Assembly: GCA_944390345.1 (NCBI GenBank)
Contig: CALXPP010000002.1
Location: 26,060 to 90,059 of the forward strand
Length of the DNA stretch: 64,000 nucleotides
Source: an uncultured Clostridia bacterium
GTDB taxonomy: Bacteria > Bacillota > Clostridia > TANB77 > CAG-508
Direction: 5' to 3'
The translations under genes were made by a program, and so were the position numbers. The notes below the pieces were generated by a model. The model made no database searches. It had not been told where the DNA came from and saw only the letters and a program-made list of their open reading frames with translations. How positions within the stretch are numbered: position 1 is the first letter of the stretch; every line of letters starts with the position of its first letter. This document shows positions 8,171 through 42,534 of the stretch, piece by piece.

Positions 8171-8845
8171 TTAGTAATTACAACCACAAGAGCCATTTCT
8201 ATTATTTGTATTCATATTCTTTAAATTACTTATAGTATTTACGCCATTTACTGTATTATTTCTCATTCCAGTGTACCATCTTTTTTCTGCTAATTTATCT
8301 TGAACATTATTTAAAGCTTCACCAAATCTTTGAAAATGGACAATTTCTCTTTCTCTTAAGAAACGAAGTACATCTATAACATCTGGATCATCTTTACAAA
8401 GATCTATCAATTTTTCATAAGTTGCTCTTGCTTTTTGTTCAGCTGCTAAGTCTTCAGTTAAATCAGCAATAGGATCACCTTTTACTGCAATTGCTGCTGC
8501 TGAAAAAGGGAAGCCACCTGCAGACTGAGGATATACACCAAAGCCATGATCTGTGTAATAAGCACTTAAGCCCATTTCTTGCATTTGTTGAGGAGTGCAA
8601 CCTTTTGTTAATTGGTGTACTAAAGTTCCTACCATTTCTAAGTGTCCTAATTCTTCAGTACCGATATCGTTTAATACTGCTTTTGATTTTTGATCTGGCA
8701 TACCAAACCTTTGAGATAAATATCTTAAAGATGCACCTAGTTCACCATCAGGACCACCATATTGTGATATAATTACTTGAGCAAGTTTTGGGTTTGGTGT
8801 TCTAATATTAATTGGATATTGTAAATGTTTATTATAAGTCCACAT
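8171..8845 (-). CDS. cotJC: Spore coat protein CotJC (manganese-catalase family)
   Basis: The sequence MWTYNKHLQYPINIRTPNPKLAQVIISQYGGPDGELGASLRYLSQRF...GTEELGHLEMVG...REREIVHFQRFGEAL is a typical CotJC/Mn-catalase sequence. The ATG at 8845 has SD AAGGAG at 9-nt spacing, and the ORF-track start at 8893 would overlap cotJB. An extra Asn/Cys-rich C-terminal tail is present. Confidence 0.85.
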   Translation of the reverse strand: MWTYNKHLQYPINIRTPNPKLAQVIISQYGGPDGELGASLRYLSQRFGMPDQKSKAVLNDIGTEELGHLEMVGTLVHQLTKGCTPQQMQEMGLSAYYTDHGFGVYPQSAGGFPFSAAAIAVKGDPIADLTEDLAAEQKARATYEKLIDLCKDDPDVIDVLRFLREREIVHFQRFGEALNNVQDKLAEKRWYTGMRNNTVNGVNTISNLKNMNTNNRNGSCGCNY

Positions 8846-8850
8846 ATTTT

Positions 8851-9117
8851 TTAACTCCTTTCCCAAGGCCAAGGTAAATCTATCCAACGCCATTTATTGC
8901 AAGGACATTCAATAGTTAATGGCCCATATTTTCTTTGATATTCATCTGTTAAGTTTCTTAGCTCTCTACTATATTGATTATGAAGAGCAATAGCTCTTCT
9001 ATCGCAAGGGTGAGTGTCTAAATAAAGAGCTAAATCATTTACAGAAAATCTTAATTCTCTAATTTGCATAAGCATTTCTTGTTGATTTGAATTATTGCAA
9101 CCACAATTACAACCCAT
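8851..9117 (-). CDS. cotJB: Spore coat protein CotJB
   Basis: The sequence QQEMLMQIRELRFSVNDLALYLDTHPCDRRAIALHNQY...YGPL is a CotJB-type pattern. The gene lies between cotJA and cotJC. The start could be 9117 or 9132. Confidence 0.8.
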   Translation of the reverse strand: MGCNCGCNNSNQQEMLMQIRELRFSVNDLALYLDTHPCDRRAIALHNQYSRELRNLTDEYQRKYGPLTIECPCNKWRWIDLPWPWERS

Positions 9118-9481
9118 TATTTTCACACCCACTTTCTATTACATTTGATTCTAAAAAATCAGCTTCGATAACAGAATCATTTGGAGCATACGGACTTACA
9201 AGCTCAGGAAAAATAGTTCCATTTGCTAATCCGCAATCTTGTCTAAAAACCTCTCCCATTTTTTGATTAAGCACATACGCGTGCCCATACATTGGATTTT
9301 CTGAAAATCTTTCATTACTCGATTCAGAGAAGCCACATTCACATTCTTCATATTCTGTATTGCAAGAATAATTAGAAGTTCTGGGCATTATATTGTTTGT
9401 ATTATATAAATTGCAACAGCCACCTGTTCTTTGGTTATAGCAATTTGAGTTGCAATTTCTATTATTACAACATCTTCTCAT
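9107..9481 (-). CDS. cotJA: Spore coat-associated protein CotJA with a Cys/Asn-rich N-terminal extension
   Basis: The C-terminal half (YGHAYVLNQKMGEVFRQDCGLANGTIFPELVSPY) matches the CotJA core. It is the first gene of the cotJ triad, with SD AAAGGAGG upstream. Confidence 0.7.
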   Translation of the reverse strand: MRRCCNNRNCNSNCYNQRTGGCCNLYNTNNIMPRTSNYSCNTEYEECECGFSESSNERFSENPMYGHAYVLNQKMGEVFRQDCGLANGTIFPELVSPYAPNDSVIEADFLESNVIESGCENNGL

Positions 9482-24604: not shown

Positions 24605-25585
24605 ATGTCATTTTTTCATAAATCAGGCATAGTAAACGTGAAAATGGTAATCACGGAAGAAAAAATTTTATCTAATATAGATAAAGTTCAAAAGTTAATA
24701 AATCCAAATAGCAAGAAACAAATTGTTCAATTAGAAGATGATTCTTATTTTAAAGATTTAGTAGAATCAATCAAAACTTATCTTTTAGAATACCCTAAAA
24801 AGAAAAACTTTCCAAGAAGTGTTTATAAGGCAGCATACAATTTAGTAGAATATGCAACAAACCAATTTGAAGAAAACACAAAGAAGATTGAAGAACTAAT
24901 TCGTAAAAGAGAGAAGAATATTAAACTTGCCAGTGTTTTAAGAGATGCAACAGCAGCTGTAAAAGCAAGAGCAAAAAATTGGAAAGAAATAGTAAAAAAA
25001 TTACAAACTAAATATCCTGCAGATGTTGCAGAAGCTTTAAATATAATTGGGGGAACTAAAGATAAAGAATCTGATGAATATAAAGGTGCTTGCAAATTAA
25101 TAGATGCTAAAATAAATAATTTAGAAGCAAATTTACATATTGAAATAGATATGGAAAGAATTGAGGATAAATCAAAGGCTTTAAGTTATATAGGAATAGA
25201 AATTGCAGAAGCTTTAAAATATATACCAGCACCAATAGAAGAATTTGTTCAACAAGAAGAGCAGACTGTAAATGCTACTGTACAACCAGAAGAAGTAAAA
25301 GCTTCTAAAGTTCAAGAAATAGTAGTACCAAAAGAAGTAAAGGTTGAAACAAAGAAAGCAGAAGTTAAATCTGAAATTATTCCAGAAGTTGTTAAAGAGG
25401 AAGTTTCTCAAGCTCAAGCAGAAGAACAAGAAGCTTTTGTTCAAGAAACTAGATTTGAAACAAAACCTTCATTATGGCAAAGAATTAAAAACAGTAAATT
25501 TGTTAGAACTATTAAATATATAATGCAAATTAAAGTTGTTTTGGATTATCCTGCTTTACCAGAAGGTAGAGGAGACAATTTCTAA
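24605..25585 (+). CDS. Hypothetical protein with a Glu/Lys/Val-rich low-complexity region
   Basis: 326 aa with AGGAGG at 24589-24594. The low-complexity stretch is EEVKASKVQEIVVPKEVKVETKKAEVKSEIIPEVVKEEV. I recognised no family. Confidence 0.5.
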   Translation: MSFFHKSGIVNVKMVITEEKILSNIDKVQKLINPNSKKQIVQLEDDSYFKDLVESIKTYLLEYPKKKNFPRSVYKAAYNLVEYATNQFEENTKKIEELIRKREKNIKLASVLRDATAAVKARAKNWKEIVKKLQTKYPADVAEALNIIGGTKDKESDEYKGACKLIDAKINNLEANLHIEIDMERIEDKSKALSYIGIEIAEALKYIPAPIEEFVQQEEQTVNATVQPEEVKASKVQEIVVPKEVKVETKKAEVKSEIIPEVVKEEVSQAQAEEQEAFVQETRFETKPSLWQRIKNSKFVRTIKYIMQIKVVLDYPALPEGRGDNF

Positions 25586-38008: not shown

Positions 38009-38047
38009 AAAGCTTTTAAATAGAAACCCTATTTAAAAGCTTTTTGT
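38009..38047 (+). terminator. Rho-independent terminator of typA
   Basis: GCTTTTAAATA gaaaccc TATTTAAAAGC followed by T5. Confidence 0.8.
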
Positions 38048-38131
38048 TTTTATAAAAACTATAATATTAATAATTTTATGTAAGACTTTATATAATAAAA
38101 ATTTTAAATAATTATCTGATTAAAAATGGAC

Positions 38132-38159
38132 GACGCCCCACTGGAGCCAGTAGGGCGTC
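38132..38159 (-). terminator. GC-rich hairpin terminating cassette 2
   Basis: GACGCCC pairs with GGGCGTC, with an inner ACTG/CAGT helix. On the minus strand it is followed by GTCCATTTTTA. Confidence 0.65.
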
Positions 38160-38168
38160 TTGAGGATG

Positions 38169-38513
38169 TTATTTGTTTCGGTAATATAGCTCTCGAAAAC
38201 CGTATTTGGAAGGAGTGGTTGAAAATGCCCAAAAGGGCTTATGTATGTTTAATTCCTGGATTTTATTGTGTATTACTCCTTCCTGCAGAAACTTTAAAGT
38301 GTGCCGATTTGACACAAAGAACCGAAGAGGCTTAATAAAGTTGCCAACTTCGTATTCAAAAACAATCTCGTCTCTTGTCTGTAGATGAAAGATCATAGCT
38401 TTATCAAGTAAATTCATTTCCACGCCGTTTAACTGTCTTTCTAAGGTTTCGAGAAATTGTTTCTCCAAAGTTTCTTCTTCTTCTAATTCTAACCGAGCAA
38501 ATATTCTTTCCAT
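38169..38513 (-). CDS. Small hypothetical protein (114-aa ORF), GC-rich cassette 2, distant paralogue of 18153-18398
   Basis: AGGAGGA lies 8 nt before ATG 38513. The N-terminus MERIFARLELEEE parallels MERNIDKQKLEEL, and FLQEGVIHNK (residues 75-84) parallels LLAEGCYRNQ*. The last ~30 codons look like a read-through of a former 3' UTR. Confidence 0.55.
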   Translation of the reverse strand: MERIFARLELEEEETLEKQFLETLERQLNGVEMNLLDKAMIFHLQTRDEIVFEYEVGNFIKPLRFFVSNRHTLKFLQEGVIHNKIQELNIHKPFWAFSTTPSKYGFRELYYRNK

Positions 38514-38563
38514 ATAGGAATCCTCCTTCTTCTAAATTTAAAAAATTTTTTTGCGCCTAACTT

Positions 38564-38592
38564 ATTATATCACAAATTTACATAAATCGCAA
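38564..38592 (-). promoter_or_regulatory. Sigma-A-type promoter with TTATGTAA spacer motif (cassette 2)
   Basis: The minus strand reads TTGCGA T TTATGTAA ATTTGTGA TATAAT, a 17-nt spacer. Confidence 0.65.
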
Positions 38593-38758
38593 ATTTTGAT
38601 TTTAAGTGTATTAACTTTATAATAATTATTATTAATTGATGCTTATTGTTTTGCACTTATAATTGTATTATTTATAAATTTAATACTTAAGAAAAGCAAG
38701 ACTTGTTTTTTGACATAAAAAATGATATAAATAAGTGAAGTAAGAAAAAGGAGCAAAT

Positions 38759-39349
38759 ATGATAAATCTAGAAGAATTAGAAAAAATAAAGAAAAAAGCT
38801 TTAGAAGAGCATATTCCAATAATAATGGATGATACTTTGGAAGTAATAAAAAAGATTTTAGAAGAAGAAAAACCAACAAATATTTTGGAAATAGGAACAG
38901 CAGTAGGCTATTCTGCTATACAATTTGCAAGATATTCAGAAGGAGCTTGTGTAGATACTATAGAACTAAACGAAGAAAGAGCAAAAACAGCAAAGGAAAA
39001 TATAAAAAAAGTAGGACTTGAAGAAAAAATAAATATTTTAATTGGAAATGCTGTTGACATTTTGCCTACTATAAATAAAGAGTATGATATTATTTTTATA
39101 GATGCAAATAAAGGAAAATATCCTATATTTTTAGAAGAAGGAATTAGATTAGTAAAAAATAATGGAATAATTTTAGCAGATAATATTTTATATAAAGGCT
39201 ATGTTTTAAGTGACTATAATAAACATAAACAGAGAACAGCAGTAAGACATTTAAGAGAATATATAGCAAAGGCAATAGAAGATGAAAGACTGAAAAGTCA
39301 AATATTAGAAGTAGGTGATGGACTAGCTATTTCTAGAGTAACCAAATGA
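38759..39349 (+). CDS. Class I SAM-dependent O-methyltransferase (family 3, YrrM/TrmR-like)
   Basis: It has the SAM-binding motif ILEIGTAVGYSAI and IFIDANKGKY. Confidence 0.75.
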   Translation: MINLEELEKIKKKALEEHIPIIMDDTLEVIKKILEEEKPTNILEIGTAVGYSAIQFARYSEGACVDTIELNEERAKTAKENIKKVGLEEKINILIGNAVDILPTINKEYDIIFIDANKGKYPIFLEEGIRLVKNNGIILADNILYKGYVLSDYNKHKQRTAVRHLREYIAKAIEDERLKSQILEVGDGLAISRVTK

Positions 39350-41401: not shown

Positions 41402-42076
41402 ATGATATTAATATTTGTAAAAAGTATTATTTTATATACAATTGTTTTAATTGTTATGAGGTGTATGGGAAAAAGAGAAATTGGACAGATGCAGCCTTTT
41501 GAACTTGCTATTGCAATTATGATTGCAGATTTAGCAACTACACCAATGACAGAAATAGGTATACCTTTATTATATGGAATTATTCCTATTTTAGGTCTTC
41601 TATTTATGCATATTATTATTTCACTTGGAAATTTAAAAAGTATAAAAATGAGGGAATTTATATGTGGGAAGCCTAGAATTTTAATATATAGAGGTAAAAT
41701 AGATGAGCAAGCTTTAAAATTAGAAAATTTTACAATTAACGAATTACAAGAAAGATTAAGAGTAAACAATATAAACAACTTAGGAGATGTGGAATTTGCA
41801 ATACTAGAAACTAGTGGGCAAATAAGTGTAGTGCAAAAACCAGAAAAAAGAGCTTTAAAGCCAGAAGATTTTAATATAGATGCTAAATATGAAGGAATTT
41901 CTTACGATTTAGTAATAGATGGAAAAATAATGGAGGATAATTTAAAGAAGCTTGGGAAAAGTAGAGCTTGGTTAGAAAGGGAAGTTGGCAAATTTAATAT
42001 GAAACCTGAGGAAGCTTTAGTAGTAGTCTTAAATGGTGATAGAACAATTTTTTGTCAAAAGAAGGAGGAAAATTGA
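41402..42076 (+). CDS. YetF/DUF421-like membrane protein
   Basis: The N-terminal TM region contains MRCMGKREIGQMQPFELAIAIMIADLA, and a soluble C-terminal domain follows. Confidence 0.7.
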   Translation: MILIFVKSIILYTIVLIVMRCMGKREIGQMQPFELAIAIMIADLATTPMTEIGIPLLYGIIPILGLLFMHIIISLGNLKSIKMREFICGKPRILIYRGKIDEQALKLENFTINELQERLRVNNINNLGDVEFAILETSGQISVVQKPEKRALKPEDFNIDAKYEGISYDLVIDGKIMEDNLKKLGKSRAWLEREVGKFNMKPEEALVVVLNGDRTIFCQKKEEN

Positions 42077-42534
42077 AAAAAATAAAAAGGGAAATATGGC
42101 TTTTAATTTTAATATTAATAATTATTGCAGTTTTAGAAATTATAACCAATTTAATATCTAATAATAGTGTAGAGCAGATACTCGGAAATCTAAAAGAAGT
42201 AAAAACAAACTTAGAAAATGTAGAAAAAAATGAAGAAGAAAAATTGTCTTTAGCTAATAGTCAAAAACTAGAAATAGAAGAATCCAGTGAGGAAATAAAT
42301 GGTTTAATGGAACAAATAGGTAAATTAAAAGAAGAATGGTTTAAGGCTGAAAAAAAATTATCTTTTTTTGCAGAACACGATGAACTAGAAAAAATAAGTT
42401 ATGCTATTACTATATTAGAAGAAAATGCAAAAAATAATGAATATAATGATGCTTTAGAAAATATTGTAGAAGCAAATTATTGGCTAGAACATGTAAAAGA
42501 AAAAGATAGTTTCAAATTAAAAAATATTTTTTAA
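42052..42534 (+). CDS. Membrane-anchored coiled-coil protein (DUF4363-like by context)
   Basis: It overlaps the end of the DUF421 gene and has an N-terminal TM helix. The start may be TTG 42073, after AAGGAGG. Confidence 0.5.
   Translation: MSKEGGKLKKIKREIWLLILILIIIAVLEIITNLISNNSVEQILGNLKEVKTNLENVEKNEEEKLSLANSQKLEIEESSEEINGLMEQIGKLKEEWFKAEKKLSFFAEHDELEKISYAITILEENAKNNEYNDALENIVEANYWLEHVKEKDSFKLKNIF

Follow-up and report, generated by a model that had tools for sequence, protein, structure and literature searches.

Three kinds of described systems come closest to the locus reported here. ORFan accessory genes of intergenic islets are short and monocistronic, carry their own promoter and terminator and have an atypical composition; they are patchily distributed between close relatives, evolve fast at the protein level and are unannotated. 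Orphan immunity proteins of polymorphic toxin systems, such as the SUKH/SMI1_KNR4 and YezG-like proteins, are small, soluble and mildly acidic, have an alpha+beta architecture, evolve fast and are scattered singly. Integron and other mobile gene cassettes present variable coding interiors at a fixed chromosomal position. Each of these descriptions also applies to a locus at 38 kb in a 64,000-nt stretch of DNA from an uncultured Clostridia bacterium (contig CALXPP010000002.1, 27% G+C), which is referred to below as the window and in whose positions all coordinates are given. The open reading frame (ORF) of this locus, encoded by the minus strand, is designated gene B, and the ORF of a locus at 18 kb on the same strand is designated gene A. 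A sequence-only reading of the window had taken the two loci for copies of one cassette with conserved ends and a divergent interior. Our analysis indicates that the gene B locus is very probably a single, self-contained and vertically resident accessory gene and not a composite cassette.

For comparison, the typA loci of 80 GTDB species were used, all of them from uncultured Clostridia of the gut, 'Candidatus Scatovivens' and Clostridium sp. CAG:440 among them. Gene B is a real gene under purifying selection along its full length. Relative to the ortholog in locus L009, with which it shares 75% amino acid identity, the proportion of nonsynonymous differences (pN) is 0.135 and that of synonymous differences (pS) is 0.72, which gives a pN/pS of about 0.19 over the whole gene. 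The last 30 codons are the most constrained part (pN 0.054, pS 0.83, ratio about 0.06). It could be supposed that the ORF is spurious and that the locus functions instead through a non-coding RNA or as an antisense regulatory element, as the ORF is short and unannotated and the hairpins are strong. The large excess of synonymous over nonsynonymous changes across the whole ORF makes this hardly credible, as do the preservation of ORF length and frame down to about 20% identity, the confident fold prediction and the lack of overlap between the gene B unit and either adjacent gene. Rfam, searched at gathering and E-value thresholds, returned one tRNA elsewhere and terminator-like noise far below the gathering scores, and no other family match.

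At the level of sequence, the locus has the parts of a sigma-A-type monocistronic unit, namely, hexamers at 17-nt spacing, a ribosome-binding site (RBS), the ORF and an intrinsic terminator (Table 1). The promoter scores 10 of 12 in the consensus scan, has TG before TATAAT, and is followed by a 5' untranslated region (UTR) of about 45 nt; we take its hexamers to fit sigma-A with an extended −10 element and not the sporulation factors F, G, E, K or H. The terminator is kept in L009 and L043. The convergent typA gene ends in a terminator of its own about 90 bp beyond the hairpin of the gene B terminator, and the divergent neighbour, which begins at 38759, encodes an O-methyltransferase (Pfam Methyltransf_3, TrmR/YrrM-type family). 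On these descriptive points the sequence-only reading was accurate: the strings and coordinates it quoted were correct on re-reading, its G+C count of 23 of 60 for 38161–38220 was reproduced, the GC-rich hairpin exists as described, and the locus does lie directly behind the typA terminator.

Table 1. Features of the gene B and gene A loci, in window coordinates.
Feature	Position	Strand	Remarks
Gene B, whole unit	38122–38592	−	promoter, RBS, 114-codon ORF and intrinsic terminator; monocistronic
Gene B promoter, sigma-A type	38564–38592	−	−35 TTGCGA, 17-nt spacer, extended −10 TGATATAAT
Spacer motif ATTTATGTAAAT	38576–38587	−	dyad ATTTA-TG-TAAAT with core TTATGTAAAT; inferred candidate operator
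Gene B RBS, AGGAGG	38522–38527	−	8 nt before ATG; kept in L009
Gene B ORF	38169–38513	−	114 codons and TAA; ATG at 38513, TAA ends at 38169
Gene B, last 30 codons	38172–38261	−	C-terminal beta-hairpin, strands 94–98 and 107–112; block pLDDT 89–96
Short hairpin within the ORF, GCCC-TTTT-GGGC	38226–38240	−	GCCCTTTTGGGC; 4-bp stem, −8.0 kcal/mol; encodes K-P-F-W-A
Gene B intrinsic terminator	38122–38159	−	12-bp GC-rich stem (38132–38159, −23.8 kcal/mol), then GUCCAUUUUU; listed by the terminator scan
typA terminator	38009–38043	both	bidirectional, AT-rich, detected on both strands by the terminator scan; −16 kcal/mol; downstream boundary of the slot
Gene A	18153–18398	−	81-aa acidic protein in the carB–ABC transporter slot; predicted all-helical; GC3 0.43
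Gene A promoter	18433–18461	−	TTGCAA, 17 nt, TATAAT; TTATGTAAAT core one base off its position in gene B; identical in ortholog locus L001
Terminator common to gene A and convergent carB	18102–18127	−	preceded by a small hairpin at about 18128–18143

The interpretation placed on the 3' end of gene B in the same reading fared differently. It held that a 3' module had been duplicated in tandem, that the stop codon of the internal copy had gone out of frame and that the ORF therefore read through for about 30 codons into the second copy. However, the last 30 codons have an aligned counterpart at the C-terminus of all family members, and the supposed ancestral TAA is not at that position in L009 or L043. 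In direct tests against random window segments, from which all p values for the coding and 3' modules are taken, the internal and terminal copies do not resemble each other (p = 0.59), nor does the 3' end of gene A resemble the internal copy (p = 0.75). The hairpin that had been regarded as the remnant of a terminator is missing from L043 and from the DNA of diverged members and is not listed in the terminator scan; it is a by-product of the K-P-F-W-A codons, in which F94 is invariant, and not a terminator remnant. The internal module (FLQEG...) is the first beta-hairpin of the protein, with the invariant Q77 and G79, and the terminal module (RELYYR) is its last strand; the two are therefore different parts of one domain.

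Only the resemblance between the 3' end of gene A and the terminal copy is marginal (p of about 0.01–0.04). It consists of TTACCG(C/A)AAC(C/A)A(G/A)TAA followed by a hairpin and encodes Y-R-N-(Q/K)-stop. This ending is not kept in orthologs of gene B, which end in ...YYRKK or ...YYRKHN, and the wider family ends in ...AYKPE or ...YYFIP; therefore, the terminal resemblance is not an inherited module. The claimed similarity of the 5' coding regions did not reach significance (p = 0.075), and a scan of the whole window with the gene B 5' UTR and coding start, the internal module and the terminal module did not place the 18-kb locus among the top matches. Global MAFFT alignment of the two loci misplaced the promoters and was uninformative; local alignments were used instead. 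A search for repeats at the gene B locus revealed no terminal inverted repeats, target-site duplications or attC-like site, only low-complexity AT-rich matches and terminator stems.

A modular cassette whose conserved promoter, 5' and 3' ends recombine, with a tandemly duplicated 3' module and an ORF running through a lost stop, is thus highly improbable. What speaks for it is that the promoter similarity is real, that both proteins start with M-E-R and end with Y-R-N-(Q/K), and that the terminal 3' alignment is marginal. Against these stand the dissimilarity of the internal module to both of its supposed counterparts, the failure of the TAA and the hairpin to persist in orthologs, the lack of flanking repeats, and the character of the supposed extension, which is ancestral and structured and under tighter constraint than the rest of the protein. 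The more general proposal of cassette exchange retains some support from the similar promoters before unrelated interiors, the changing occupancy of the slot in related genomes and the locally raised divergence; the conserved cassette ends, repeats and target duplications it would need were not found. A false lead, that of a duplicated or read-through module within a modular cassette, can be removed.

Gene B belongs to an undescribed family of about 100 aa that is restricted to a clade of AT-rich uncultured Clostridia of the gut, relatives of 'Candidatus Scatovivens' / Clostridium sp. CAG:440. An identical protein is recorded in 284 metagenome blocks; in each of the six contexts read, typA and the methyltransferase gene flank it. 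A profile search among 5.8 billion proteins gave 25 relatives, and an exhaustive HMMER search among 1.84 billion representatives gave 34 family clusters at 50% identity; the matching small proteins are about 100–125 aa long. The sequences P0028 (a MarR fusion), P0003 and P0009 (frameshifted tails) were left out of the profile alignment as apparent assembly artefacts. The family comprises a close group G1 (the window, P0002 and L043) and a diverged group G2 (L023, L028, L032 and L034), which hhalign matches with a probability of 91% and an E-value of 1e-6 over 87 columns, the C-terminal 30 residues included. Gene B itself matches the family hidden Markov model over its full length with an E-value of 1.6e-26, and paralogs in a second slot match it with 4e-7 to 2e-3. 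The family motifs are F-x-Q-x-G-(E), (K/D)-P-F-x-A and the C-terminal E-x-x-x-Y, all of them present in gene B; residues D37, F66, Q77, G79, L88 and F94 are invariant, and the N-terminus is variable even among orthologs.

The gene B product is predicted to be a soluble alpha+beta protein whose long N-terminal helix is followed by two short ones and a sheet of four strands. The AlphaFold2 model, built from a 19-sequence alignment, has a mean predicted local distance difference test score (pLDDT) of 84 and a predicted template modelling score (pTM) of 0.75, with helices at residues 2–27, 35–46 and 63–68 and strands at 73–77, 80–82, 94–98 and 107–112. The protein is mildly acidic (isoelectric point 6.1, family median 5.1) and hydrophilic (grand average of hydropathy −0.50). 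Scans of Pfam, NCBIfam, PHROGs and PADLOC gave nothing for gene B or gene A, and for 19 family members and the remaining slot ORFs they yielded just one sub-threshold match, to SUKH-1 in L084. The precomputed Pfam annotation of the 25 relatives contained no domain, save for one apparent MarR chimera. Neither the single protein nor the profile found a match in PDB sequence searches, Foldseek comparison of the model with PDB and BFVD gave nothing with E < 0.6, and IMG/VR searches with the gene A and gene B families yielded no relatives. What is documented is an unannotated small-protein family, common in human and animal gut metagenomes, whose confidently predicted fold has no match in PDB or BFVD.

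In all contexts examined, the gene B family has typA on one side and the O-methyltransferase gene on the other and is encoded on the opposite strand, and diverged paralogs occupy the adjacent slot, which separates the methyltransferase gene from glmU (L104 1790–2176, L023 7052–7327 and L063 6610–7002); the L104 paralog has the promoter TTGACTTTATGTTAATCTTGATATATAAT and a G+C content at third codon positions (GC3) of 0.35. The family was seen only in these two slots and not in IMG/VR; no systematic scan of the window for recombinases accompanies this observation. In most of the 80 species, just 10–250 bp separate typA from the methyltransferase gene. The slot is empty in the two nearest sampled species, L018 and L019 (96% and 95% typA identity, respectively). 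About ten species have an insert of 450–590 bp with a minus-strand ORF of 96–116 aa; some of these ORFs are members of the gene B family, and others are mutually unrecognisable (L046/L052; L053; L084; L020, 214 aa). The L084 ORF is weakly SUKH-1-like (E 0.003, below the Pfam cut-off). The occupants of the slot share the strand, have a similar promoter and possess their own terminators. On the typA tree, a single-gene neighbour-joining tree, the family is distributed patchily within the clade of the window. Gene B is dispensable, as its absence from the two nearest sampled species and its patchy distribution demonstrate. A different kind of occupant was noted in a more distant clade (L051, L055, L057, L072, L089, L091, L092 and L094), where a Lys/Arg-rich ORF of 90–145 aa is encoded on the plus strand with a lower GC3 of 0.12–0.24.

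Gene B changes several-fold faster than its neighbours, and its GC3 is three to five times that of host core genes. Gene A and gene B are the only strong GC3 outliers among the 60 window genes: their values are 0.43 and 0.36, compared with 0.07–0.22 in the other 58, the glycolytic genes included, and 0.09–0.10 in the genes flanking gene B. All 12 slot genes examined have a GC3 of 0.22–0.44, as against 0.07–0.15 for typA and the methyltransferase gene of the same genomes. In eight genome pairs, pN of the gene B unit is 0.18–0.52 and that of typA, the methyltransferase gene and glmU is 0.00–0.16. Between L023 and L104, the glmU protein is identical and its pS is 0.05, while the gene B unit is 69% identical with a pS of 0.42; for typA and the methyltransferase gene, pS is 0.19 and 0.37. 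Such local divergence above that of the flanks is compatible with allelic replacement by recombination in flanking core genes. It should be kept in mind that pS reaches a plateau near 0.5 in AT-saturated core genes, which makes some of these rate contrasts uninformative. High GC3 was also noted outside the slot, in a predicted membrane protein of 235–246 aa upstream of typA (GC3 0.40–0.46), which has a similar promoter (L034 3033–3066 and L032 3055–3088, both on the plus strand), and in other accessory ORFs across the 80 loci, for example, in L075 (122 aa, 0.47) and L068 (79 aa, 0.37).

These data can also be explained by a hot-spot model in which the typA–methyltransferase and carB–ABC transporter slots swap divergent small genes by homologous recombination in the flanking core genes, with raised GC3 arising secondarily from a foreign origin or from GC-biased gene conversion. 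We consider this model quite possible, though short of an even chance, and it can coexist with vertical residence. It agrees with the finding of an empty slot or at least four mutually unrecognisable ORF types across the 80 species, with the raised GC3 of every slot occupant examined, with the L023/L104 contrast and with a similar pattern at the carB–ABC transporter slot: among the relatives that keep synteny there, gene A is present in one, an unrelated 84-aa ORF in one (L146), and the slot is empty in four. A further point in its favour comes from L043 (CALXAQ010000011.1), which carries the closest genomic relative of gene B. Within typA, the identity of its contig to the window jumps from 74% to 98%: the upstream genes are 44–66% and the N-terminal half of typA 74% identical, and the C-terminal half of typA, the methyltransferase gene and glmU are 98%, 84% and 94% identical, respectively. 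Either this mosaic is a chimera of metagenome assembly, formed within a strongly conserved gene, or it is a true recombinant whose breakpoint falls in typA. The model is weakened by the confinement of all gene B homologs to this lineage and slot, with no external donor among the 5.8 billion proteins or in IMG/VR, by the possible chimeric origin of the L043 mosaic and by those contrasts that pS saturation makes uninformative.

On the reading favoured here, gene B represents a lineage-restricted, fast-evolving family that is resident at one syntenic slot and frequently lost, and local recombination or allelic replacement in the flanks probably adds to the variability of the slot. Several points weigh against this reading. 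Vertical residence is not proven and needs many independent losses, and by itself it leaves the undecayed GC3 unexplained. The raised local synonymous divergence and the L043 mosaic point to recombination or horizontal replacement as well. In PDB, BFVD, Pfam, NCBIfam, PHROGs and PADLOC, neither the sequence nor the fold of gene B has a counterpart. As for the promoter motif discussed below, its reading as an operator is a weak one: it is carried by just 20 of 102 high-GC3 genes, it occurs in typA promoters of three species and in several unrelated IMG/VR phage promoters with a correctly spaced −35 element, and it may be simply a favoured sigma-A spacer.

The similarity of the gene A and gene B promoters, to which the sequence-only reading had drawn attention, was confirmed. 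Local alignment gives 37 of 45 identities and a score of 41, compared with 22 ± 2.8 for shuffled sequences, and in the whole window, on both strands, the gene A promoter is the best non-self match of the gene B promoter, with the next scores being 33, 29 and 28. The gene B promoter is kept in L009, L043 and the diverged family members, with fixed TTTG-N20-TATAAT spacing. The same spacing characterizes all slot gene promoters, usually with TRTG before the −10 element, and most of them contain TTATGT(A/T)AAT within the spacer, with a displacement of one base in gene A, L053 and L084. The TTATGTAAAT core is found at the same position or one base away in gene A, in the family members, in the unrelated L053 and L084 genes and in the second-slot gene of L104. 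In the carB–ABC transporter slot of L146 (minus strand, 2322–2353; the ORF starts at 2272), a perfect 15+15-nt palindrome, TTTTATGTATATTTT-AC-AAAATATACATAAAA, abuts the −10 element; it contains the TTATGTA core, precedes the unrelated 84-aa ORF (GC3 0.26) and looks like an operator. A third exact occurrence of TATGTAAATT at 25130–25139 is inside a coding region and was dismissed as a chance match. A literature search on the spacer motif returned irrelevant matches only.

The motif lies within 130 nt upstream of 20 of 102 genes with GC3 of at least 0.22 and of 26 of 581 others, an odds ratio of 5.2 for observations that are not phylogenetically independent. The TTATGTAAAT spacer motif is a candidate operator and may serve a common repressor. 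The next-best match to the gene B promoter in the window, TTGACTTTATGTAACCTTTTTGATATAAT (57626–57654, plus strand), also carries the spacer motif; it precedes the gene for a 335-aa XRE-family helix-turn-helix protein (57688–58695, plus strand) with a slightly raised GC3 of 0.22. As pure conjecture, this protein may be named as a candidate regulator acting on the shared motif.

Apart from the promoter, gene A has little in common with gene B. Compared with its syntenic ortholog, it has a pN/pS of 0.17 (dN/dS of about 0.10 after Jukes–Cantor correction), and only three homologs were found in the databases. Its AlphaFold2 model has a pLDDT of 64 and five helices. BLASTP comparison of the two proteins gave an E-value of 0.34. 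The possibility that gene A is a truncated member of the gene B family was rejected on the basis of hhalign E-values of 0.14 and 0.03 and of different predicted folds. The two proteins are unrelated, their predicted folds being all-helical and alpha+beta, respectively. Their resemblance appears to be confined to the promoter, a shared design with TTATGTAAAT in the spacer, and gene A and gene B would be co-regulated, lineage-specific small genes and not copies of one cassette.

Two further sequence elements were noted around gene A. Directly after its stop codon, a short GUGCC...GGCAC stem (18128–18143, minus strand; −6.8 kcal/mol) precedes the terminator shared with carB; the ortholog L001 has the same stem with an altered loop. 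Upstream of the ABC transporter operon, at 18520–18560, there is a GT(A/G)C-rich repeated motif, TTTGTATTATTTGTGTTAGTACAGATGTATCA, that is kept in L001 and L146. It looks like an operator for the GntR-family regulator whose gene is part of the operon and is unrelated to the promoter of gene A and gene B.

A more far-reaching reading, which we regard as unlikely, would unite gene A, gene B and the other slot genes in a lineage-wide regulon repressed through a TTATGTA(A/T)AT dyad operator and serving immunity or counter-defence. Selection, or else GC-biased conversion at recombination hot spots, would then actively maintain their high GC3. If the hypervariable slots behind core genes, the promoter motif common to unrelated genes, the persistently high GC3 and the fast evolution reflect co-regulation and diversifying selection, new functions in immunity or counter-defence might be sought among these genes in an uncultured Clostridia lineage with reduced genomes.

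Elsewhere in the window, three minus-strand ORFs at 8171–9481 (8171–8893, 8851–9132 and 9107–9481) occupy a stretch of raised G+C content (0.32–0.38); judged by eye from their N-termini, they presumably correspond to a cotJA/cotJB/cotJC spore-coat operon. DUF421 (YetF-like) and DUF4363 genes are located at 41402–42534, as identified by Pfam matches on same-species loci. Together, the cotJ-like ORFs and the DUF421/DUF4363 genes suggest that the organism forms spores.

Returning to the described systems, two were discarded for gene B. A type I or type II toxin–antitoxin module does not fit, as gene B is monocistronic between two terminators, its product is hydrophilic, and there is no PADLOC match. 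A precursor of a ribosomally synthesized and post-translationally modified peptide or of a signalling peptide does not fit either: orthologs differ in their C-terminal residues, a folded protein is predicted, and the neighbours are typA, the methyltransferase gene and glmU.

The gene B protein might act by binding or neutralising a target, in the manner of immunity, anti-toxin or anti-mobile-element (counter-defence) proteins, a speculative and rather doubtful assignment made because of the fast evolution, the patchy presence, the small acidic alpha+beta architecture and the weakly SUKH-like gene in the same slot of another species. Unlike the described immunity proteins, gene B shows no sequence or fold similarity to any immunity family, and neither a toxin gene nor an array of immunity genes is near it. 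With regard to SUKH/SMI1_KNR4 in particular, neither gene B nor 19 family members gave a match to PF09346 or any other Pfam family, and no PDB match with E < 1 was found by Foldseek. A separate plus-strand gene in the window (55317–56069) codes for 250 aa that include a YezG-like immunity domain (PF04634, E 9e-22) and has a GC3 of 0.16. It sits between gpmI-like (53775–55304) and eno-like (56270–57583) genes and looks like an orphan polymorphic-toxin immunity gene in a glycolytic cluster.

Compared with integron and mobile gene cassettes, the units of the gene B slot each have their own promoter and terminator, and a single gene is present instead of an array. There are no attC-like or terminal repeats, and in the contexts examined and in IMG/VR the family was not seen at other loci or on mobile elements. 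With respect to ORFan islet genes, gene B differs in being GC-richer than its host and not AT-richer, which is expected only because the host has 27% G+C. Moreover, the gene B family is tied to one slot over deep divergence (down to about 20% identity) while its GC3 stays high, and the unrelated occupants of that slot have a promoter motif in common.

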